A stretch of 64,000 nt of DNA from Eledone cirrhosa (Eukaryota). The DNA lies in contig OZ024743.1 in assembly GCA_964016885.1 (NCBI GenBank), forward strand, positions 240,002,001 through 240,066,000. The letters run 5' to 3'. The notes below the pieces were generated by a model. That model was not told the DNA's origin and did no database searches. It worked only from the letters and a program-made list of their open reading frames with translations. A program made the translations under genes and the position numbers. Numbering within the stretch: position 1 is the stretch's first letter; each line of letters opens with the position of its first letter. Shown piece by piece: positions 2,932 through 51,566 of the stretch.

Positions 2932-3040
2932 TATATATACACACATATATATATATATACATATTTATATACATATATATAAATGTGTGTATATATATGT
3001 GTGTGTCTGTGTATTTGTATATATATTTGTGTGTGTGCAC
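2410..3040. repeat. Compound (TA)n/(CA)n microsatellite region
   Basis: Directly visible; explains the YI/HT ORFs. Confidence 0.9.
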
Positions 3041-3214
3041 TCGTTTTTATTTTATGTGCTTCTGCTCTGACATCCCAGACCCTCCTTGAGCAATGTTCTG
3101 ACTCAAATCAAATAATATAATATATTTCCGCCATCATATATATGTTCAAAAATACCTATTTGAATAAAAGAAACGGCTGAAATGAGGCAACATGATGTGA
3201 AACTAATCAAATGT

Positions 3215-9045: not shown

Positions 9046-9647
9046 GCTCGTATGCAATTAGAGCAGAGTGACGTTCTGAACGACTGTTGTCGGTTGTATT
9101 TAGATTGGTTCTAGTGTTCCTGCGTGTGATTTTCAGTCCTTTTCAACCCTTACGATTCAAGGTATATGTTTTATTCCTTGGTGTTTTTCGACCACATGCC
9201 AAGATGTCCGTTGACCGACTGTGGGTGTAGGACAACTTTTCTAGGCCCCTCTTCATGTGGAGCAAGCAATGCTGTTTCTAGAAAAGGTGTGCCGAACTAT
9301 GTTGTCATCCCCAGGTCAATACCAGATGACCATAATTCTGAACCACCTCCATACTGCATTGGGATTGTAGCTTCTAGTGTCATCTTACACCTGGTGTTTT
9401 CCCCCTTCTCCGTTGCTACAGGGTTTCGATTGGTTGGTGGTAGCGAACATGTCCTTCGAGCTGAGCAGTGGAACTTTTAGGTGACCCTCGCCAAGTATGC
9501 CAATATATATATACCGAGTTTATATTCATAGAAATCTGGGACTTGTCTCTTTCTTCTCACTTTCTGTTGCTTAAACCATTTTGTTTGTTCACCCTAGCGT
9601 CCCCTTTATTTACGTGTCCCAACGACTTTTTTTAGCCGTTGTTCGCA

Positions 9648-9717
9648 CCAACCTGAGGTATATGGCCTTTAAAGCGATGAAATGCTTAGGACGGTTGGAA
9701 GGCCACTGATGAAGGAC
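9648..9717 (+). ncRNA. Permuted/pseudoknotted hammerhead-like ribozyme with kink-turn (copy 1)
   Basis: CCAACC-tga-GGTAT-A-TGGCCT-ttaaagcgat-GAA-ATGCT-tag-ga-c-GGTTGG-a-AGGCCA-CTGATGA-aggac. Confidence 0.7.
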
Positions 9718-10280
9718 TTACTTTTTCATATGTAACCCATTTGCAACGCCGCAGCTCCATTATTATCATATTTACATATATTTTTTCCTCTGCTGCCACC
9801 CGTCTGTTTCGTTCTTTGTATCTTTACCCTTTCTAGCAGTCTCTCTCTCTCTGTTAGCCTCTTCCTCAACTTTCACTCACTCATTCTCTGTCACTACCTC
9901 TCCTCCTCCTCCTCCTCTTTCTTCCCGTTTGACCTGTCCGAATTCTTTTCTCGCGCGTTCTTGGCCAAGCCGGTATGAATTTTTTCTCTCTCTCTCTCTC
10001 TCGTCTGCGACTTCACAGAACTTATGTTTACCGAATTCGCAGACCAGACTCCTTCTTCTACCCCCCGTTAGACCTGTGCGAAATTCCTTCCTTGCTCACA
10101 TTTCAACCAGGTTTGATGGTCTTTATTCTTTTCGTTCACGATTTCACCGAGTTTATATTCATAGAAATCTGGGACTTGTCTCTTTCTTCTCACTTTCTGT
10201 TGCTTAAACCTTTTTGTTTGTTCACCCTAGCGTCCCCTTTATTTACGTGTCCCAACGACTTTTTTTAGCCGTTGTTCGCA

Positions 10281-10350
10281 CCAACCTGAGGTATATGGCC
10301 TTTAAAGCGATGAAATGCCTAGGACGGTTGGAAGGCCACTGATGAAGGAC
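10281..10350 (+). ncRNA. Permuted/pseudoknotted hammerhead-like ribozyme (copy 2)
   Basis: As copy 1, with stem III GGTAT/ATGCC. Confidence 0.7.
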
Positions 10351-10516
10351 TTACTTTTTCATATATATATATATATACGATATTTCTGAACAATGTCCCT
10401 CTACCAAATTCGAACCATATGTGTTCATCTATCAGAGGATATATTAAAGATACTTGCCAAAGGTGCCGTGCAATGAGATCGAATGTGGAACCCCGTGGAT
10501 TTGAATCAAATTTGTT

Positions 10517-11433: not shown

Positions 11434-12060
<627 letters not shown>

Positions 12061-12183
12061 TAACGGAGGAGTTGTGGTAAGGAACCAGATGGGCCATGAG
12101 GGACCAGATGGACCAGACGAGTCCAGAAATAGCCGTCGAAACGGCTTGAGTTCTGCCGTCGGGGTCACACTTTCTCCTATATA

Positions 12184-12226
<43 letters not shown>

Positions 12227-12228
<2 letters not shown>

Positions 12229-14602
12229 TGTCAGAGTCTTCATCATACTGTACAGCTGAAACGCGATTTTGCAACTCGAGTTTAAATCGGCTTGCTGTTT
12301 CGTTACATGAGAGCTTGTCTAAGTTAACTTTCGATGTTATTTTAGTGATGCGAAATCTCACGCGCACTATACAATGGTCAAATAATAGATAATAGGGGGT
12401 GTTAAGAGCAGTGCTGTCTAATATGCTTATTCTTGCTGAATATTTTCTTGCTATTATAAAGTCTATTTTATTCTTAGTTATACTGTCTGGTGATACCCAA
12501 GTGAACAGGTTTTTCTTTCGAAATATTGTGTTTGTGATCTGCATATTGTTCCTGGTACAAAATTCGGCTAGAAGCTCGCCTCTTGAGTTAAATGTACTAG
12601 TGTTATATTTCCCAATACTTGATGGGAATGATTCGTTCAGTTGCCAATTTTGCAGTTAAAATCAGAAAGAGGTGATCTCTCTTCGGTGTCTTATCTATAA
12701 TGGCTTTGCAATCTGATGAAGATTCTGACAAGATTTATGATACTATCTGCAGAGGCATAAAAGAGGTATCTGAAGAGATTTTACCTAAGGAAAGCCTTTC
12801 CATCCCACAATGGATGCCACAACAAACAAACAAAAAAAGAAGCAATATCTAAGAAACATAGAATCAGAAGAGAATATAGCCACACATCAGCCCAATATAG
12901 AATAGCAAAGGCTGAATAAAAAAAACTCGTTATATCAGACCAGCTTAAGCAAATGTACAATAACTTTGAAAAGCTGTATAACCTATCACCCAACAGGTTA
13001 CATCATGCTGTTCTGAAGAAACTAAAGACTAAACCAAGAAACCTTTGCTGGGGTATTAAGATTAAAACGATACTATCCTTACATCCAAAGATGATATCCT
13101 TGAACGCTGGGCTAAATTCTATGAAGAACTCAGAACAAATAACCATTCATGATTCGACATCAGATGCGATCTTAGCTAGCAAGATATCTCATGCCATCAA
13201 AAATTTGAAGAGAGGAAAAAGCCCTGAACTGGACAACATATACTCAGAATTCATCAAAGCTGCAGGTGAACCAATTATCAAAGCACTTCAACATCTCTTT
13301 AACTATATTATCACTACAGGAAAAAGCCCAGACATGTTCAAGAAAGCATTGATAGTTGTACTCTACAAAAAAGGTAACAGACTTGATTGTGGGAACTATC
13401 GTCCTATCAGCCTATTGAGTCACGTTTACAAGCTTTTCATGAGTATCATTGCAGCACGAGTGAAGTCAGACCTTTAGGCCTCAAGCTGCGTATCAACCTG
13501 GAAGAGACACCATTGAGCAGATCCCAGCTATTGAACAAATCATTGAGAAATGAATAGAATTCAACAGCCCTGTGCACATCACCTTCATTGACTTCACAAA
13601 TGCTTTTGACATCGTGAAACTACCTAGCCTGTGGCAACTCTTAAACATGACTTCAATTAACAAAAATAGATCAACCTACTGAAAGAAAATTACACCAACT
13701 CATCAGCATATATCAAAACAGATTGGGAAGTACACGCTGTATGGTTATAGCTGCACTTATCTACCAAACTGAAGAAGAATGCTCCTCTGGCTATCAAATA
13801 GGAGGTACAATCGTATCAAATCTTAGCTATGAAGACGATCTGGCCATCATGAGTTACTCTAGAACTGATCTGCAAGACTTTCTGAATGTACTGGCCAAAC
13901 ATTCGCTGGAGGCTGGCTTACACATCAACATCTCCAAAACAAAGAGTATGACAACTGATAAAAACAATGCCAATCTCCAACTCACAATCTACAACCAGAA
14001 AATTACTGAAGTTACGGAGTTTGTATATCTCGGTCACAAACTATCATCAAACAACAACGGAATGGTGCTACGCAGTATCGCTCTAGGATGGGCAGCTTTC
14101 AACAAGAACAAGGAAGTACTAACATCAAAACGAGTTTCCTATCATTTGAGAGCTAAGATCTTTGATACATACACCCTACCAGTTGTTTTATATGGTCTTG
14201 ACTGTGTTAATTGGACGACAAGGTTACTTCAGAAGCTCTCTACATTCCAGAACCACACCATGAGACTTATGACTGACAAGCAGCTCAGTGACTGTATGTG
14301 CATCACTGAGCTGCTCAACATTACCAAACTTAGACAAATTACATCAACTGTCAAGTCAAAAATACTCAAACTATACGTTCATATAAAAAGATCAACTCTT
14401 GGTGTGAGTAGGTTATGCCTGGAAGGAAGGTTGGCTGGTAAGAGAAGCAGAGGCCAGCAGCCAAAACGATGGCTTGATAATGTCAACCTATGGACTGGAT
14501 TTGATCATTGCTCTTTAAACTCTGCTGCTGGTGATCGAACTTTGTGGAGAAGAATATCTCATGTTGATGAGCAGTCTGCAACTGGCAGAGTTTAGTGTCA
14601 CA
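12227..14602 (+). mobile_element. RTE-like non-LTR retrotransposon, 5'-inverted and decayed, inside (TA)n
   Basis: + strand RT motifs (GKSPELDNI, YKKGNRLDCGNYRPISLLS, LSYEDDL, FVYLG, GKRSRGQQPKRWLD); - strand 12227-12660 APE C-terminus (FTWVSPD..KNKIDFI, DH). Confidence 0.9.
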
Positions 14603-20391: not shown

Positions 20392-20727
20392 ATTATTAGA
20401 AATGTAAGCTATCGCCGTATTTTGACTAAAGAAATTAAAGAAATTATTTAGCCTGACAGTGGGCTTAAGAACCCTCGGAGAAATGGAAAAAGATGAGTAT
20501 TGACGTACATGGGAGTCGAACCCACATCTTTGGTTATCCGGACCACTGTGCTACCATTTACACCAACACATCACCCGTCTTTTCCCATTCAAATTAGAAG
20601 CTATAAACTTAGCGACTGTAATGTCAAGTAAGAATATTTTCGAAACAGCGAGTTGATTTGAAATTATTAGAAATGTAAGCTATCACCATATTTTGACTAA
20701 AGAAATTAAAGAAATTATTTAGCCTGA
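20392..20727. mobile_element. Short unit with 65-bp direct repeats (period 271) enclosing a tRNA-like sequence
   Basis: 20392-20456 is repeated at 20663-20727; begins at (TA)n and abuts a family B fragment. Confidence 0.7.
20501..20572 (-). tRNA. tRNA-like cloverleaf (probable pseudo-tRNA / Pol III promoter); aberrant anticodon loop CCGGATA
   Basis: Acceptor GATGTGT/GTACGTC, D arm GTGT-AAATGGTA-GCAC, TGGT/ACCA, T arm GTGGG-TTCGACT-CCCAT. Confidence 0.65.
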
Positions 20728-22925: not shown

Positions 22926-25900
22926 TAGCAGAAGAACCCGGCATTGCCCGGGTGTAAGTCGACCTTTGCTCTGTTGTTAAAATGTGTGAAAGTTACTTCC
23001 CGCGCATCACAGGTGCAAAAACCTTCGAACCTCAAGGAAAAAAACAGAGGTTAGTAGACGCAGGTGTGTAATTGAGCATAAATAATGGATCAATTGTAGG
23101 TTCACAGTGTATCGTTGAAATTGTTCTTTGCACGACTGACGGAAGTCAAATTCACTTGAAATTGAATTTTCAGTTGATTTTTAAAGCAGGGTGAAAAAGT
23201 CGATTTTTTTCACAGCTTTTTTTTTTTTTACAATTTTCGCGCTCACATGTGCAGAAGAAGAAATAAAAGGGACTTTATCTGAACCGCGGCATAATGAGGA
23301 GTCTTTTGTGACAGTTTTGAAGAAAATCGGACGTTCCTGTAAAAAGTTTTCCCATGTGCAACTTTGCCTTGTTTTTTGCGCAAAGTCGAACCCCCGCTTC
23401 AGTTTTATTGATTTTTTACATGAATGCGTGACCTCTGAAGTAGATTTGAGTAGCTAAAAACCTGTCCCGGTAAATTTGCTATAGGTGAAAAAAAGTTGAT
23501 CAAAATTGTGTCTAGGGTTATTGCCCTTTGCAACAGCCTCAACGTGTCTTCAAGTATGGTTTGTTAAATTGTTGTGGAACTAAATCGACTTTCGTCAAAT
23601 CGGACCAAGGAAACAATGTTTCCATTTGTCTTTCTAGCTGGTGTACCCGGGTACACTCGGCGTTATAAGGCGCTGGATTTAAACGGGTCTGCGCTAAATT
23701 CCAGCAGGATGCTTTAACCAAAATAAATGAAGAACAAACGTTTCATTTTGTGCTCCAATCTGTGATATTGGTATTTTGAAAAAATGGTCCACAAACATCC
23801 ATGGAGCAAGTGTAACGCATGTATCAGGTTATGAGAAAAAGGGTTTTCCATTCTCCATCCATAAGATACCAAAAAATTACACGCAAATAAACCGGGATTT
23901 TAAGGCACTGCCCAATTCATAGCTGAAAGGTAAGAATCAAGTGGAATAATGTTTTGCGACATTGTCAAATATACAACCGTACAAAAGCAAAGGATATAGC
24001 GATTGAAATCTAGGTAGACCAAAGAATTTGGTGGGGTTGTATATCAGAAGATTGTTTTCCTTGTGATTCGCGTCTAGCCTACAAAGTGAAGTTAGATGAT
24101 TGTAGTCGGTGTTGTATCAATAAAACATAAAAGCATACAGAAGACTGAACACTTACGAATTAAGTGAAAATCACGTTGATATTCCTATCGGAGCAACATG
24201 TACCGAAAAACCTGACGGACTGTTGTGTCAATATTGAAATCGTATAAATTGCGAATCCCGACCTCTAAGATGTAATGGATAGGCCTTGGAGGTGAAGAGG
24301 AAGAATTGGTACAATTGTTTTGCTGAACATTAATCTAAATAGACTTACGCAGCATCATCGTACGGTTTTGTTGTTTATGACCTAGAATGAGGGCTGGTTA
24401 AACGCGGCAGAAAAATAAGCCATGCTGATGATGTTTAGGGGCGTCGCAGGGAATAGATGCGGTGTTGTCAGTCCATTGTGAGGACAGTGAAAGGCACACT
24501 GATCGCTTGAGAAGACGCGATGCTACACAGGATGCTTCTCGGCCATAATTGACAGAAAGGAATGTCAGGAGAAATGAAAGTGTTGCTATTCTTCCTTTGC
24601 TTAGCATGATGAACATGTAATTAAAAGGATTTACCATGGACTATCGTGTACGTTGGTATTGTTTTTAGCCTGCGAAAATCGGTGGTCAAATGGGACAACA
24701 ATAAGCCATGCTGATTGCAAGGAATTGATGCGGCATAGATAGCCATGGGAGTCTTGAAGGAGCACGGCGGTCAGGAAAAAGAAAGAGCCGAGGAGGTGAT
24801 GGTGGCTGACAGTGCATGGATGCGGCATCCTGAGGCATGACGATGCAGTGGGAAGACGGCCAGCAGGCAAGGAAGAGGGCAGGGGTGAACGGTGGCAAGG
24901 ATGCCGCATGGTGAGCCATGGCAGCCTTGAAAGAGCACTGCGGGCAGGCAAAAGAAAGGGCCGAGTAGGGGATGGCGGCTGACAGAGCATTGATGTGGCA
25001 TGGCGATGCATGGCGATGCAGTAGGACGACGGCGTGCAGGGAACGGAGAGGGCAGGGGTTGACGGTGGCAGGGATGCGACTTGGTCCCTCAAGACTGCCA
25101 TGCCTGGCAGTGGAAAGGGTCGGGGAGTGGAAGGCGGCTGACAGGGCAGGGATGCAACATGATGAGGCATGACGAAAGGGCAGGGTGCATGGCGGCTGAC
25201 AGGGCATGGATGCGGCATGCCAATTGAGTTGCACCTCGGAAATGTAGAGAGCACCGGGAGGCACGATGATTGTTTGAGAAAATCGGGTGCATGACAGGAT
25301 GTTTATCGGCCATACATGATCGGTAGGCTTTGGAGGAGAAAGGGATGAATTTTTGTTTAATTTTGTTAAATATGGTCAACATGAATGTAAAAAGACTTAC
25401 ACAGGATCGTCTTCATGTTCGGTGTTGACTTTGGTCTGAGATAATGGGCGGTTATGTGCGGCGCAGGAATAAACTATGCTGATGACATTTGAGAAAGTTG
25501 CTGACAGGGCAGGAATGCGCATGGGGAGCCATGGCAGTCGTGGGGGACCAAGGCGTGCGAGCAAGGGAGAGGGCAGGGGTGCGAGCAGGGATGCGGCTTG
25601 GTTAGGCACGGCAGTCTTGAAGGAGCACGGCGGGCAGGCAAAATAAAACGCTGAGGAGGGGATAGCGGCTGACAGATCATGGATGCGGCATGGTGAGGCA
25701 TAACAATGCAGTGGGTCGACGGCATGCAGGGAAGGGAGATCGCCGGGATTGACGGTTGCAGGGATTCCGCATTGTGAGCCATGGCACTCGTGAAGAACCG
25801 AGGCGTGCGGGTAAGGGAGAGGGCAGAGGAGGGCATGACGGCTGACAGAGCCTGGATGCGGCATGATGAGGCATGACGATCAGTGGGACGACGGAGTGCA

Positions 25901-27050
25901 GGGAAGGAAGAGGGCAGAGGAGGGCATGACGGCTGACAGAGCCTGGATGCGGCATGGTGAGGCATGACGATCAGTGGGACGACGGCGTGCAGGGAAGGGA
26001 GAGGGCAGGACTTGATGGTGTCAGGGATGTAGCTTGGTTAGGCATGGCAGTCTTGAAGGAGCACGGCGGGCAGACAAAAGAAAGGGCTGAGGAGGGAATG
26101 GTGGCCGACAGGGCAGTAATGCGGCATGGTGAGGCATGACGATGCAGTGGGACGACAGCGTGCAGGGAAGGGAGAGGCAGGGGTTGACGGTGGCAGGGAT
26201 GCGGCTTGGTCAGGCATGGAAGTCTTGAGCTCTCCCGGAGTGTAGGCAATGAAAATGGGCAGGGGTGGACGGTGGCAGGGATTCGGCATATTGAGCCGTG
26301 GCAGTCCTTAGGGACCACGGAGGGCAGGCAATGGAAAGGGCCGGGGAATGAATTGCGACTGACAAGGTGATGCACAACGATGCAGTGGGTCGACGGCGTG
26401 CAGGGAAGTGAGAGGGCAGAGGTTGACGGATGCCTCATTATGCTACGGTAGTGGGACCACGGGAATGAAAAGAGCGCATGTAGGCTCGATGATCGCTTGA
26501 GAAGACTGGGCGTAATACACGATGATAGTCCTTATATAAGAAATGGAAGAATCGGCATAAAAGGTTTGCTGAATATGGTGAGCGTTAATTTAAAGAGACT
26601 TACGGTGGATAATCCTGATAGATTGAACGTTTTTTGCATGGCGGGAGTCGCGACAAATGGAAGCAATAAGAATGGCATTTTTCGGTTGCCGGATTTTTGC
26701 CTCAGGGGGTTCGATTGATCCCCGCATCAAAATACATACCTACGTCAAATTTCATTGGAATCGGACAAATTTCGTAAATATCGATTTTTCGAACATTTAA
26801 CGTTCATCCCCGGATCAAAGTACACACTTGCATCGAGTTTCATCGAAATCGGACGATTTTTGAAAATATCGATATTTGGCTTCTGGGGATCCGATTATCG
26901 ATTTTTCGAAAATTTCAAGTCGCCTATTCCAATCTACGGGTCGAGTTTTATATATGTGTCAAGTTTCATGAAAATCGGATTAACGGTGTAGCCTGCAAGT
27001 TCGGGACACCAAACAAACAAACAAGGCCCAACTTCACTTTATATATAAGA
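22926..27050 (-). mobile_element. 4.1-kb non-autonomous Helitron with GC-rich internal repeats
   Basis: - strand starts A|TCTTATATATA and ends with hairpin cccgggcaatgccggg followed by CTAG|T, i.e. canonical Helitron termini. Confidence 0.78.
24690..26435. repeat. GC-rich nested tandem repeats
   Basis: Recurrent ggctgacag.gcatggatgcggcat..tgaggcatgacgatgcagtggg..gacggcgtgcagggaagggagagggcag units. Confidence 0.9.
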
Positions 27051-28586: not shown

Positions 28587-29055
28587 AAAATGAAGAATTA
28601 GAAATAGAAGTTAGGACTATCCATCATCAGTTGTCTACTAGGCATCATAGGTATTTCTTCGCATTACAGACAATATACCTCGCCCTAGGGCGATACAATA
28701 ACTAAAATAAGTTATTGGTATAAAAAGAGTTGGGTGGAGAAAGAGAGAGACACGAATGGTGAGGGAGGCAACGTAAAGAGAGGAACATATGAAAAAATCA
28801 AGTCAATAATTCATTTCGAACATAAGAACAGGCGAATATTGACGAGGAGAACAAAGACACATCTTAACCGCACGGGTGTGAGTGAGAAGAAAGATCGCGT
28901 ATGGTGTGGGTCGATGTAGGAAGTGAGAGAGAGGGTGAGTAGCAGAGAGTAAGTGAGTGAAAGTGCGAGGAAGAGGCTAACCGAGAGAGGGTGACTAGCA
29001 GAGGGGATACGTATACAGAGAGAGAGAGAGACAGAGAGGGAGAGGGAGAGAGGGA

Positions 29056-29090
<35 letters not shown>
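28587..29090 (-). mobile_element. Diverged member of the retrozyme-like family
   Basis: Same layout as 29539-30336 (CT-rich body, ataactt..tttagttatt hairpin, then ribozyme motif). Confidence 0.7.
28619..28688 (-). ncRNA. Permuted/pseudoknotted hammerhead-like ribozyme (most diverged copy)
   Basis: CTAGG-gcga-GGTAT-A-TTGTCT-gtaatgcgaa-GAA-ATACC-tat-ga-tg-CCTAG-t-AGACAA-CTGATGA-tggat. Confidence 0.7.
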
Positions 29091-29494: not shown

Positions 29495-29541
<47 letters not shown>

Positions 29542-29693
29542 AAGCGCTCATATATTCACCTAGCTTATGCTAACAGAATAACTATGAAGCTTGTTCCCTT
29601 CCTTCTACGGTTAGCTCTCCTCTTTGTTGTTATCTTGTCTCACTCGCTTTACGCGTTTTAATTGTCCTAATAACTTAATTTAGTTATTATGCA

Positions 29694-29763
29694 CCGACGT
29701 GAGGTATATGATTTTTAATGCAATGAAATATCTATGATCGTCGGCAAATCACTGATGAGGGAC
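29694..29763 (+). ncRNA. Permuted/pseudoknotted hammerhead-like ribozyme
   Basis: CCGACG-tga-GGTAT-A-TGATTT-ttaatgcaat-GAA-ATATC-tat-ga-t-CGTCGG-c-AAATCA-CTGATGA-gggac. Confidence 0.7.
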
Positions 29764-30207
29764 TTATTTTATTACATGTTATCCATGTGCAACCTGCAGT
29801 ATTCTTCTCCCCATTTTTTCACATATATTTACCTAAACTGCGATTCTGTTTTTTTCTCTCTCTCTCTCTTACTGCTCCCTCGTTCTCTCTGTTTCTCCTA
29901 CTTTCTTTCGCCCCCTCTGTCATGTCAGTTAACTCTTCCTCACACTTCCACTCACTCACTCACTGTTTCTCCTCTTCTCACTTCACCCCGTTCGCGACGA
30001 AAACATTTTCTCTCTTTCTCACATTTGAATTCGTTCCCGAAAGGTCTTTTTTCTAAGCGCTCATATATTCACCTAGCTTATGCTAACAGAATAACTATGA
30101 AGCTTGTTCCCTTCCTTCTACGGTTAGCTCTCCTCTTTGTTGTTATCTTGTCTCACTCGCTTTACGCGTTTTAATTGTCCTAATAACTTAATTTAGTTAT
30201 TATTGCA

Positions 30208-30277
30208 CCGAGGTGAGGTATATGATTTTTAATGCAATGAAATATCTATGATCGTCGGCAAATCACTGATGAGGGAC
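30208..30277 (+). ncRNA. Permuted/pseudoknotted hammerhead-like ribozyme (second repeat)
   Basis: Same as 29694 with one mismatch in the extra helix (CCGAGG). Confidence 0.65.
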
Positions 30278-30352
30278 TTATTTTATTACATGTTATCCAT
30301 GTGCAACCTGCAGTATTCTTCTCCCCATTTTTTCATATATATATATATATAT

Positions 30353-31150
30353 ATATTGTTATACTTTGGGTGGGTCATGTTGCCAAAAACCCACTGTACT
30401 AATAGGACATGTATTATATGTAAAGTAAACTCCCGGATAAACTGTAAAACTAGAAACGTAGTCTATAGCATAAGATGTACAGAGGGTACTTGCAGAAACA
30501 TAACAACAACATACATAGGCCAGACAGCTCGTAGCATAGGTGAAAGGAAAGACCAACACTGGGGCGAATAAAGGACGAAAAAACGGTTCAGTACTATACG
30601 AACATGCCAGACAACAACATAACGGTAACATAGATAACATAGAAATTAAAATAATATCTAAACATAGAAATGACCCAGCAGATATGCAAATCAGAGAGGT
30701 AAGTGAAATAGAACTTAGAAGGCCAAAGCTAAACAGAAAAAATTAATGGAATAACGACACCCAAACAAACGATACTGACTTAAGAGAAATATAAATAAAT
30801 AAATAAAGAAAGAAAGAAATAAACAGATTAAATAAAGCTGGCGTAAAAATACTATACAACAGGAGGAACATAATAACTGACGATGTTGCAGATGTGCAAC
30901 GAAAGAACTTTGTTAGACTATATATATGTGTTTATATCTATATTATATCTGTATTTTTGACCGTTGGTCAGTCAATGGTAAACATTGAGGACCGAATAAA
31001 TTAACTGTTATAAAAGATACAGAAGCGAAAACCAACCAAACAGTGAGTGTGTTCTGTTATTAATTCTGGCAATATTATTACAACAATATGACCCTTCCCA
31101 AGTATAACAATATTTGTTTGGACACACGATTTCATATCAAAAACCTCGCA
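30353..31150 (+). mobile_element. 5'-truncated PLE (GIY-YIG and 3' UTR), sister of the 37-38.8 kb copy
   Basis: C..RTCIIC..NVVYSIRC..YIGQTARSIGER; 30353-30382 is an inverted copy of 31084-31113. Confidence 0.88.
30871..30915 (+). ncRNA. Type I HHR in PLE 3' region
   Basis: CTGACGA-t-GTTGCA gatg TGCAAC-GAAA-gaac-TT-tgtta; mutated homologue at 38557-38603. Confidence 0.65.
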
Positions 31151-36939: not shown

Positions 36940-37004
36940 TGTTTTTATAAATGATATATATATAGTATGTATATATATATATATATACATATCGGTGTCG
37001 GTCC

Positions 37005-38791
37005 CTAAAGGGCCACATATTCAAATTCAACGAGAAGATCTACACCCAAATTGAGAGACCAGCTATTGGCGTCAACATAGCTGGTGACGTTGCCAACCTT
37101 TTCATGGTATGGTGGGAAAGGAGACTCAAAGATCTCCTTGATGAGAGTTCCATAGACCTCATCATGTACTCTCGTTATGTAGACGACATTAATATAGTAA
37201 TAAGGACATCCCCACAAGAGAGTATTAACAAGTATGATTTAGAATGTAGCACAATGGAAAGCATCCAGCAGATAGCCAATTCCATACACCAGAGTATGAC
37301 TGTAACTATCGACTACCCTTCCAAACACCCTAACAATGGACTACCTGTATTAGACACGGAACTCTGGATTAACACCATAGACGAGAGAGCCCAAATTCTC
37401 CACTCACACTACGCTAAACCCATGGCCTTCAAATATCTGTTACTCAAAAACTCAGCAATGTCCAGTAGTGATAAGTTTAATATTCTGATCGCAGACTTGG
37501 TACGAGTGGTGAGGAACGTGTCCCACATGTGCGACCCAACAGAAATGGAAAGACACATCCAACACTTCATCAACTGCATGCAGTTCTCTGGCTACAACCA
37601 AAGAGACAGAATCAGAGTATACGAAGGAGCCACGGAGAAGTATAAGACCCTCATAGAACTGGACATGAAAGGAATTTGCCCATTATACAGGAGCAACTCT
37701 TGGAATAGCTTAGATAGGACTAAACATAAGATAGGGAAAGCCACCTCATGGTACTGCAACCAGAGATACCAGAGTGTTATATTCGTGGACGCTACCCCTG
37801 GAGGGAAATTAGCTAACCAGTGTAGAAAGGCCCTGAGAAAGACCCACCTAAAGATTAAGGTGATAGAAAAGCCAGGAAGCACCATCAAATCCCTGATCAG
37901 TAAAACATACCGTTTTAAGAAAACCTACTGTACTAATAGGAAATGTATTATATGTAAAGTAAACCCCCGGATAAACTATAAAACTAGAAACGTAGTCTAT
38001 ATTATAAGATGTACAGAGGGTACTTGCAGAAACATAACAACAACATACATAGGCGAGACAGCTCGCATCATAGGTGTAAAGATAGACCAACACTGGGGGG
38101 GAACTAAAAGGACGAATAAACGGTTCAGTACTATACGAACATGCCAGACAACAACACGACGGTAGCATAGACAACATAGAAATTAGAATAATATCTAAAC
38201 ATAGAAATGACCCAGCAGATATGCAAATCAGAGAGGCCAGTGAAATAGAACTTAGAAGGCCAAAGCTAAACAGAAAAAATTAATGGAATAACAACAACAC
38301 CCAAACAAACAATACTGACCTAAGAGAAATATAAATAAATAAATAAATATATACACAAGCACAATAACAACAAACACATATAAACACACACTAGTAAACT
38401 AAAATAGAATACAATAACCAAAACACAGTCACCCAAACGCGAACACACATCAAACACTATACGCAAACGCATGCGCAGAGAAGAAGACAAAAATAAATAA
38501 ATAAACAGATTAAATAAAGATGGCGTAGATATACAATACAACAGGAGGAAACATAATAGCACCACTGACGTTGTTGCAGATGTTCAACGAAAGAACTTTG
38601 TTAGACTATATATATGTGTTTGTGTCTATATTATATCTGTATTTTTGACCGTTGGTCAGTCAATGGTAAACATTGAGGACCGAATAAATTAACTGATATA
38701 AAGATACAGAAGCGAAAACCAACCAAACAGTGAGTGTGTTCTGCTATTAATTCTGGCAATATTATTACAACAATATGACCCTCCCCAAGTA

Positions 38792-41394: not shown

Positions 41395-41818
41395 TTATCT
41401 CCAAATTATTTGTCGAGCAATATTGGCCAAGACTGCTGCTATGGTAGCAGGCAGGCCGCTGTCTTATTAACAAACCACTTTCCACTGATTGACCTCGATG
41501 TCACGTGATTGATTCTTTTTGAATTTGCCACCGACGCAGAGGCAGTGATTTTCTCAATGGCTAGGAATTCAGTCCACGCTTTGCTATTTTCTATCCACTG
41601 AATTATTTTTTAATAAGTTTCCAGAGTCCACGCTTTGCCTGGATACTTAGCTGAGAATAGTCTTCCCTGACGACGAAATGATTCTCTATATTTTCTTCGG
41701 AAAGTATATTTATTCCATTTCAGAAACTAATTAGTTGGAAGTGAAATGTTAGTAAGTAAGTTAATTTTATAATTTACTTATTTTACGTCTCTCATATATA
41801 TATATATATATATATGTG

Positions 41819-48613: not shown

Positions 48614-49214
48614 TATGAAAACTATGGGGAGAAGAATACTGCATGGTTGCACATGGATTACATGTTATAAAATGAGTCCCTCATCAGTGATTTGCCAACG
48701 ACCATTGGTATTTCATCGCATTAAAAATCATATACCTCACGTTGGAGCGATAATAACTAAAATAAGTTATTAGGACAATTGAAACGCGTAAAGCGAATGA
48801 GACAAGTAAACAACACAGGGAAAAGCTAACCGAAGATAGAAAGAAACACAAGCAACATGGTTATTCTGTCAGTATAAGCTGGGTGAATACATGTGCGAGT
48901 AAGACACAGACCTTCCGCTAGTGAATCCGATGTAAGAAAGAAGGAAAATCGTTTTCGTAGCGAACGGGAGGAAGTAAGAAGGGGAGAAACAGAGAGTGAG
49001 TGAGTGGAAGGGCGAGGAAGAGGTCAATAGAAAGTGTTAACTGACATGACAGAGGGGACGAAAGAAAGTAAGAGAAACAGAGAGAACGAGGGAGCAGTAA
49101 GAGAGAAAGAGAGAAACACAGAATCGCAGTTTAGGTAAATATATGTGAAAAATATGGGGAGAAGAATACTGCATGGTTGCACATGGATTACATGTTATAA
49201 AATGAGTCCCTCAT
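48614..49214 (-). mobile_element. Retrozyme-like unit (period 530), partial terminal repeat
   Basis: Homologous to 29539-30336; 48614-48684 is repeated at 49143-49214. Confidence 0.85.
48676..48745 (-). ncRNA. Permuted/pseudoknotted hammerhead-like ribozyme
   Basis: CCAACG-tga-GGTAT-A-TGATTT-ttaatgcgat-GAA-ATACC-aat-gg-t-CGTTGG-c-AAATCA-CTGATGA-gggac. Confidence 0.7.

Positions 49215-49255: not shown

Positions 49256-51566
<2,311 letters not shown>

Follow-up and report, generated by a model that had tools for sequence, protein, structure and literature searches.

Six copies of a predicted hammerhead ribozyme with the block order cleavage site, GAAA, CUGANGA lie in the window, the whole 64-kb stretch of Eledone cirrhosa DNA analysed here, and many Naiad Penelope-like elements have at their 3' end, judging by sequence and predicted pairing, the same family of folds. 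The reading we prefer, with a probability of about 0.7, is that the motif is an SGC/CSG-order hammerhead of the kind borne at Naiad ends, sitting in non-autonomous, retrozyme-like repeats that it would cut and that would be mobilised in trans. The earlier note on this DNA had suggested that the topology might be unpublished; the block order is in fact already known as type SGC, described by Eckert et al. (2023, PMC10085705). What seems new, in the literature searched, is the split CUGAUGA block, the supply of stem II by a 5' strand and the genomic setting.

The six-copy feature is real, and every copy lies where the earlier note had placed it. An order-specific descriptor, demanding first a cleavage block, then a GAAA block and last a CUGANGA block, with at least 5 bp in stem I and at least 4 bp in stem III, matched exactly six times in the window and never in 100 dinucleotide shuffles. 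The CUGAUGA blocks start at 9706+, 10339+, 29752+, 30266+, 48687- and 28630-, and N17 falls at 9662, 10295, 29708, 30222, 48731 and 28674, respectively. The hammerhead core that the note had claimed (CUGANGA, GAAA, the A15.1-U16.1 pair and an NUH triplet) is complete in all six, and its description also holds for stem I, Px and stem III, for the linker of 10 nt, for the AUA triplet and for the tandem G.A pairs with their 3-nt bulge. A looser, order-free descriptor gave nine window matches: the six copies, a type I motif at 27411- and two others, at 13013+ and 52428+, that are probably due to chance. Standard descriptors had been expected to miss the motif, and they do: its order is SGC and not the nested circular order of classical types I to III; the comparison with Rfam that the note had proposed gave no hammerhead model at gathering score in the window and none at E<=10 in 9400-10500.

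The complete fold is best described on copy A1, a split-block type-SGC hammerhead covering 9616..9717 on the forward strand, as delimited by alignment, covariation and RNAalifold. The 5' strand of helix Pa (9616..9619) pairs with 9714-9717 and closes a four-way junction; 95% of its cells are paired, RNAalifold recovers it, and its outer pair has changed on both sides in 8 of the 27 aligned copies. There follow the Pb hairpin (9620..9641; compensatory change at four of seven pairs, likewise recovered by RNAalifold) and P0 (9643..9646), the 5' strand of distal stem II, which pairs with 9674-9677 (97% paired, two of four pairs compensatory). The 5' strand of Px (9648..9653) pairs with 9693-9698, with compensatory change at five of six pairs, and leads into the non-bulged strand of a kink-turn (9654..9656; positions 3n, G2n and A1n), where GA occurs in 26 of 27 copies, a count partly demanded by the search patterns. 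The 5' strand of stem III (9657..9662) runs to U16.1 at 9661 and A17 at 9662, and the predicted cut lies 3' of 9662; in the 27 subfamily copies the base at N17 is either A (18 copies) or C (9 copies). Stem I begins at once (9663..9668, pairing with 9700-9705; five of six pairs compensatory). The segment 9669..9678 comprises, on alignment and covariation, the linker (9669-9673), the 11-strand of stem II (9674-9677) and N11.1 (9678), and 9679..9686, placed by descriptor and covariation, holds G12, A13 and A14 and then the 3' strand of stem III from A15.1 (9682). The bulged strand of the kink-turn, recognised by its conservation, occupies 9687..9692 (a 3-nt bulge, G1b, A2b and 3b). Covariation defines 9693..9705 as the 3' strand of Px (9693-9698), a spacer and the 3' strand of stem I (9700-9705), and pattern match and covariation define 9706..9717 as CUGAUGA (9706-9712), N10.1 (9713) and the 3' strand of Pa (9714-9717). 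P0 crosses the nested helices, as does stem I, and Px connects the strand that follows 10.x with the one preceding 2.x.

This model alters the earlier picture of stem II, which had been read as a single pair: positions 9674-9677 of the linker pair with the 5' strand 9643-9646. The conserved GGAC after CUGAUGA, then assigned to stem II, is indeed present at 9714-9717 but pairs with 9616-9619 as Pa, with the hairpin 9620-9641 between, so that the motif extends over 9616-9717. P0, Pa, Pb and the 10.1-11.1 pair form a four-way junction at A9, which thereby splits the CUGAUGA block from stem II. A 10.1-11.1 pair had been claimed for all copies; some pair is formed in 21 of the 27 E. cirrhosa subfamily copies (G-C in one), and six have none. 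The kink-turn consensus claimed at the joint of Px and stem III holds: a 3-nt bulge is followed by G1b.A1n and A2b.G2n between two helices. In the bulged strand, the G is conserved in 96% and the A in 98% of 156 copies, neither being demanded by the pattern, and at the third base of the bulge 23 of the 27 subfamily copies have U. The commonest form resembles boxes C and D.

The evidence for pairing comes from an alignment of 27 hand-picked copies, representing 24 of the 39 clusters formed from 156 copies plus three others. The 15 clusters excluded were defective singletons, near-duplicates or members of an older family without Pb, and the set therefore leans towards pairing. Within it 95.4% of cells pair, both sides change at 20 of 34 pairs, and compensatory changes occur in every helix, including stem I and Px, for which covariation had been claimed, and stem III (two of five pairs). 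None of 500 shuffles reached these values, and slid partners give 27-47%. RNAalifold, given no input structure, recovered 21 pairs, 11 of them compensatory, which make up Pa, Pb, Px and stem III. In single-sequence folding the model did not stand out (z = -0.37 to -1.74); for copy A1 a different hairpin was preferred, and a subfamily C copy on the minus strand, L037:1527-1636, folds better. Because the copies were hand-picked, are related and were gathered by patterns that require the core, the invariance of the core is circular and the pairing overstated.

The window is a local hot spot in a genome rich in such copies. The genome-wide collection proposed in the earlier note yielded, across the 3.0 Gb of E. 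cirrhosa, 11,160 matches to a tight pattern (control 0) and 14,382 to a looser one (control 10). Elsewhere the tight pattern matched once in viral contigs and five times in prokaryote genomes, and none of these six matches has the stems. A pattern for the C11.1 form gave 34 matches against 40 in controls, some of the former belonging to an older family of this ribozyme. Its members (L155, L163, L165-L168) share Px and the kink-turn and have C11.1, a longer gap before Pa and apparently no Pb hairpin.

In the window every copy sits within a non-coding unit flanked by (TA)n, the unit measuring 633 bp in subfamily A and 514 bp in subfamily B. The subfamily A element (9513..10367, +) consists of 1.35 tandem units flanked by (TA)n and carries two ribozymes, A1 and A2 (10249..10350, +; predicted cut 3' of 10295). 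The subfamily B element (29539..30335, +), about 1.55 units between (TA)n, carries copy B1 (29664..29763, +; the copy at 29694, predicted cut 3' of 29708), in which the 5' stem II strand is shortened, and copy B2 (30177..30277, +; the copy at 30208, predicted cut 3' of 30222), with a single G.G mismatch inside Px. A subfamily B' element of about 1.14 units, 84-85% identical to B, lies at 48616..49214 (-) and contains copy B3 (48676..48776, -; N17 at 48731), whose kink-turn has GG in place of G1b A2b, as the earlier note had remarked of one copy. The subfamily C element (28587..29077, -; 5' end approximate) contains copy C (28619..28721, -; N17 at 28674), with one Pa pair broken. A repeat finder run on the window gave output dominated by microsatellites.

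Copies throughout the genome lie in similar non-coding units of 500-700 bp inserted into (TA)n. The 30 best-scoring loci of subfamily A have a 3' end fixed at either of two AU-rich sites and a variable 5' end, and inverted 5'-truncated partners and tandem units are present. Tandem spacing is 445-706 bp in 23 of the 24 pairs closer than 1 kb, and the TA run begins 10-85 nt beyond the core in most copies. A spacing of 2.9 kb, considered as an autonomous element, proved to be a nested insertion and was rejected. By these sequence signs the insertion pattern is of the Penelope type, given by Craig et al. (2021, PMC8557442) as (TA)n targets, 5' truncation and inverted and tandem copies; the (TA)n target, 5' truncation and inverted copies are also common to Penelope-like clades other than Naiads. 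No Naiad-type ORF (N-terminal GIY-YIG, CxC, DKA and reverse transcriptase) was found in the units or upstream in the copies examined, nor in the 5-6 kb fetched upstream of 11 older copies, nor within 5-6 kb upstream of the older C11.1 family.

The positions at which copies begin hint that the motif may be cut. We counted 5' ends joined to a TA run on the reverse strand, each locus once, using four different patterns. Upstream of the predicted cut there are 47 such ends over 9 positions (about 5 per position), and at the cut 96 over about 5 positions (about 19 per position); the density is about 35 per position at +2 to +16, with 674 ends altogether from -14 to +16, and 223 ends over +22 to +42 amount to about 11 per position. 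Among the 19 distinct loci listed for -14 to +16, 17 begin at +4 to +16 and the other two at the cut, with no start upstream. A peak just 3' of the predicted cut fits templates that start there and would be an indirect sign of cleavage, although part of it could come from TA microhomology or from stalling of the enzyme at the fold. We think it very likely that the motif works like a hammerhead.

Naiads carry related folds. Craig et al. (2021, PMC8557442) report Naiads as without canonical hammerheads and suggest the absence of a ribozyme as a possible aid to their spread; they also note HHR_core on nine Naiad consensi and HHR_half_core on eight, the half-cores fitting no descriptor. These notes mark places of the fold described here. 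Our reading of the consensi by eye, which covered three core spellings within text lines (CUGAAGA falls outside them), gave nine places with split SGC, one partial and six with clean CSG, or about 15 of 54 consensi. Split SGC together with the kink-turn occurs there in Naiad_Ovul and, going by file order, in Naiad_Obim, Pa and Pb being out of view in three of the nine places; judged by eye, the octopus consensi have at their end the same fold of Pa, Pb, P0, Px and kink-turn, and the loop of Pb is similar.

Loci selected on the Naiad protein only point the same way. An open stretch of an E. cirrhosa Naiad remnant was used as query and found 148 relatives, of which 16 long ones with the Naiad signature were aligned; 80 metagenome loci were fetched, 65 of them distinct. 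The order-free descriptor matched 11 of the 80 (eight SGC, three CSG, none classical), always on the sense strand and outside the ORF match, whereas 50 shuffles gave a mean of 1.3 matches and at most 3 in any order. Loci carrying the fold encode the Naiad ORF with GIY-YIG, CxC, DKA and reverse transcriptase. In all eight clear SGC motifs a 6-bp stem II is formed with a 5' strand and starts with G10.1-C11.1 (1-7% in shuffles), and in seven of the eight a strict Pa directly follows A9; the descriptor had demanded neither P0 nor Pa, and the motif sequences all differ from each other. One match, in L243 at 2142, is doubtful, having U at 11.1 and a shuffle fraction of 0.04. Two loci, L210 and L214, have CSG order, and in them Pa and Pb are closed hairpins placed after A9 and before G10.1, a form that is, from its sequence, the E. 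cirrhosa form circularly permuted, that is, opened elsewhere; a relaxed SGC reading with a CUGAUAA core was dropped for these two, as CSG fits better. L201, L217 and L218 are clean CSG, as are six of the consensi published by Craig et al. Of the Naiad-like loci with at least 500 nt of 3' sequence, 9 of 39 match and 30 have no strict match; relaxed rules applied to 21 strict-negative loci gave two full motifs and one truncated. Rfam returned no hammerhead at E<=1 in the 11 matching loci. L243 also has a GC-rich split-SGC motif, with a Pa of 9-10 bp, at 2160-2290 and 3035-3165, repeated at 876 bp downstream of its Naiad ORF, and this is possibly another retrozyme.

We conclude from these comparisons of sequence that the same family of folds stands at the 3' end of many Naiads. 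The Naiads of E. cirrhosa itself are old and broken (53 matches among 88 candidates, mostly with stops), and a Naiad peptide pattern gave three matches against three in controls, all three being Naiad remnants. No intact motif was found in 23 remnant loci (best E 0.93), and the units have no other sequence in common with these remnants, so that descent from a Naiad end, and thereby the tie of the ribozyme-bearing repeat to Naiad elements, is one that we infer from the fold. The 3' untranslated ends of remnants L129 (4300-5030), L132, L137, L139, L143 and L146 are G-/T-rich and diverge strongly from copy to copy.

We propose that the nested helices would fold first, Pa closing a multiloop that contains the Pb hairpin and a rod made of Px, the kink-turn and stem III. 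In its apical loop this rod would display the cleavage site, the 5' strand of stem I, the 11-strand of stem II and GAA, and the multiloop would display the 5' strand of stem II and the 3' strand of stem I with CUGAUGA. Where loop meets multiloop, stems I and II would form and a normal core would presumably cut 3' of N17. Cutting would release unit-length RNAs, and a Penelope-like reverse transcriptase acting in trans may prime at the AU-rich sites 10-85 nt past the core and insert the copies into (TA)n. Linear cut RNAs would give short copies stopping just 3' of the cut, and uncut or circular RNAs long and tandem copies.

Do loop and multiloop belong to the same molecule? Stems I and II both link the apical loop to the multiloop at the opposite end of the Px-stem III rod, and in a crude geometric estimate 36 Å are needed, while 29 Å would be reached at the kink-turn angle and 38 Å at full reversal. 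Docking of one copy's loop on another's multiloop removes the strain, and the geometry suggests that the meeting most likely occurs between two copies, for example neighbours in a tandem transcript. For the kink-turn form we lean slightly towards such a two-copy assembly; for straight-rod forms it seems likelier, since in L185 and L182 the joints are near-symmetric and the rods near-straight, and L178 has a 5-nt bulge, joints that are unable to turn back. Dimer action has a precedent in Penelope hammerheads, as Cervera and De la Pena (2014, PMC4209133) describe them. The other arrangement, quite possible but less favoured, is that of the earlier note: each copy would fold and cut alone, with the kink-turn, probably bound by 15.5K/Snu13, bringing Px back along stem III. 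The box C/D-type consensus is conserved exactly where fold-back is needed, full reversal would just reach, and SGC/CSG RNAs with very short linkers at the stem III joint cut during transcription according to Eckert et al. (2023, PMC10085705), who raise the same puzzle of reach for a single-strand link. The shortfall at the kink-turn angle and the joints of L185, L182 and L178 speak against it, and the fold-back of one molecule is doubtful. A further reading, which we hold to be less likely than not, is that Naiads, a dominant clade among invertebrate retrotransposons, carry an overlooked family of non-circular hammerheads, in whose split form a four-way junction detaches the catalytic CUGAUGA block from stem II and the core arises only between two copies. 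The RNA would then sense tandem transcripts, and in the E. cirrhosa lineage the box C/D-type kink-turn would place cutting under host protein control.

The remaining alternatives concern the motif's function and origin. It is unlikely that the ribozyme is real but was gained independently of Naiads, or from viroid-like RNAs bearing SGC hammerheads, although no Naiad ORF lies upstream of any copy examined, the 11 older copies with 5-6 kb included, the 23 Naiad remnant loci lack an intact motif, and SGC is common in circular RNAs according to Eckert et al. (PMC10085705). Against such an origin, the octopus Naiad consensi end in the same fold, the published SGC RNAs have an intact CUGAUGA block, and three other Penelope-like families of E. 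cirrhosa carry classical minimal type I motifs. There is also a small chance that the motif no longer cuts in E. cirrhosa and is kept as a structured 3' signal that a Penelope-like reverse transcriptase recognises, or else as a platform to which protein binds. The 3'-most motif is kept intact with a 10-85 nt tail, which implies that many templates are uncut; G10.1-C11.1 is mostly lost and stem II has only 4+1 bp; and minimal Penelope hammerheads cut poorly in vitro, according to PMC4209133. But in all 27 copies N17 has remained A or C, stems I and II covary though they make sense only as a core, and the peak of 5' ends falls immediately 3' of where the cut is predicted. That chance pairing has been read into a young repeat, finally, is very improbable: the single-sequence scores are weak and the copies related, but every helix shows compensatory changes and unrelated sequences in protein-selected loci have the same fold.

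Other hammerheads and repeats occur nearby. A search for a partner of the repeats, covering 15 loci each of the window's families 50193- and 36966+ plus a Poseidon-like copy, showed that these three E. cirrhosa Penelope-like families carry classical minimal type I motifs and not SGC, and they were rejected as bearers of the same ribozyme. By their motifs, families 50193- and 36966+ would be Nematis-like and Neptune-like, respectively, the latter being the family of the ORF at 36966-38165+. Its ends bear type I hammerheads in the window at 30877+ and 27411-, it has many long open frames in the genome, and it is a candidate mobiliser of the repeats in trans. Minimal type I cores of two further Penelope-like families lie at 51448+, 15203-, 34597+ and 55820-. 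A TA-inserted, near-palindromic repeat found at several loci (L093, ~690-760; L144, ~270-420) has CUGAUGA and GAAA inverted, and a repeat with CUGACGA at 41540-41760 and in L144 lacks clear hammerhead partner blocks. The window further contains a tRNA-like sequence at 20501-20572 (-; Rfam, 42 bits), which may be a SINE head, nested GC-rich tandem repeats with periods of 82-263 bp at 24727-26346, and, at 11711-14595, LINE-like frames for endonuclease and reverse transcriptase that are broken and point in opposite directions. A pistol-like fold was dropped, as the hammerhead core is complete.

SGC/CSG hammerheads had been known (PMC10085705) from environmental RNA and two soil-DNA sequences, with no named organism; non-circular hammerheads now appear in animal genomes, in very large numbers and with a biological setting. 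The findings answer a point left open by Craig et al. (PMC8557442), namely the Naiad half-cores that fit no descriptor. The assumption that CUGANGA and stem II are inseparable is broken, which widens the search space for ribozymes. Two questions become testable: whether assembly from two copies resolves the puzzle that Eckert et al. saw in the short joint at stem III, and whether a natural ribozyme can be switched by a kink-turn protein. In the literature searched, mostly non-subscription, we found nothing placing SGC/CSG hammerheads in Naiads or animal genomes, and no hammerhead with such a four-way junction and kink-turn.

How does the motif compare with known systems? In Eckert et al. (2023, PMC10085705), type SGC denotes the block order cleavage, GAAA, CUGANGA and cleaves in vitro; SGC comes from metatranscriptomes only, CSG includes two soil-DNA sequences, and no such permutation is reported from a genome of a known organism except for one GCS candidate. 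The three blocks are assumed there to be uninterruptible, and the SGC descriptor consists of CGAAA, CUGAUGAG, a stem II of 2-6 bp and a linker of at most 8 nt. It would miss the E. cirrhosa copies, since it demands G10.1-C11.1, a stem II adjoining CUGAUGA and that linker length. The E. cirrhosa motif shares with HRIMA-1 and its variants the S, G, C block order, a short link from stem I to stem II and a helix joining the far ends of these stems, to which Px is equivalent. Their CUGAUGA-stem II block is intact and has G10.1-C11.1, whereas here block C is interrupted, a 5' strand supplies stem II, A9 is the place where Pa and Pb are inserted, and the kink-turn connects both strands of Px with stem III; theirs are from metatranscriptomes only, and ours from an animal genome with over 11,000 copies. 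CSG has the same circular block order opened at another point, and L210 and L214 form a bridge from it to the E. cirrhosa form; the CSG hammerheads of Eckert et al. have no four-way junction or kink-turn, and no link to retroelements is reported for them.

The host elements resemble Naiads (Craig et al. 2021, PMC8557442) in their (TA)n target, 5' truncation and inverted and tandem copies; Naiads carry the Naiad ORF, and the window elements do not. With the animal non-LTR retrozymes (Cervera and de la Pena 2020, PMC7229834; Li et al. 2026, 10.64898/2026.07.22.740005), thought to ride on Penelope-like elements, they share non-coding tandem units with a hammerhead in each. The retrozyme hammerheads are classical type I, the units measure about 170-400 nt and circular RNA has been demonstrated, whereas the present units have SGC and are described from sequence; Li et al. 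used only type I descriptors. The minimal Penelope hammerheads of Cervera and De la Pena (2014, PMC4209133), described there as acting as dimers, are like the proposed assembly in placing two copies in each active core; their dimer supplies stem III, while here it is stems I and II that would be shared.
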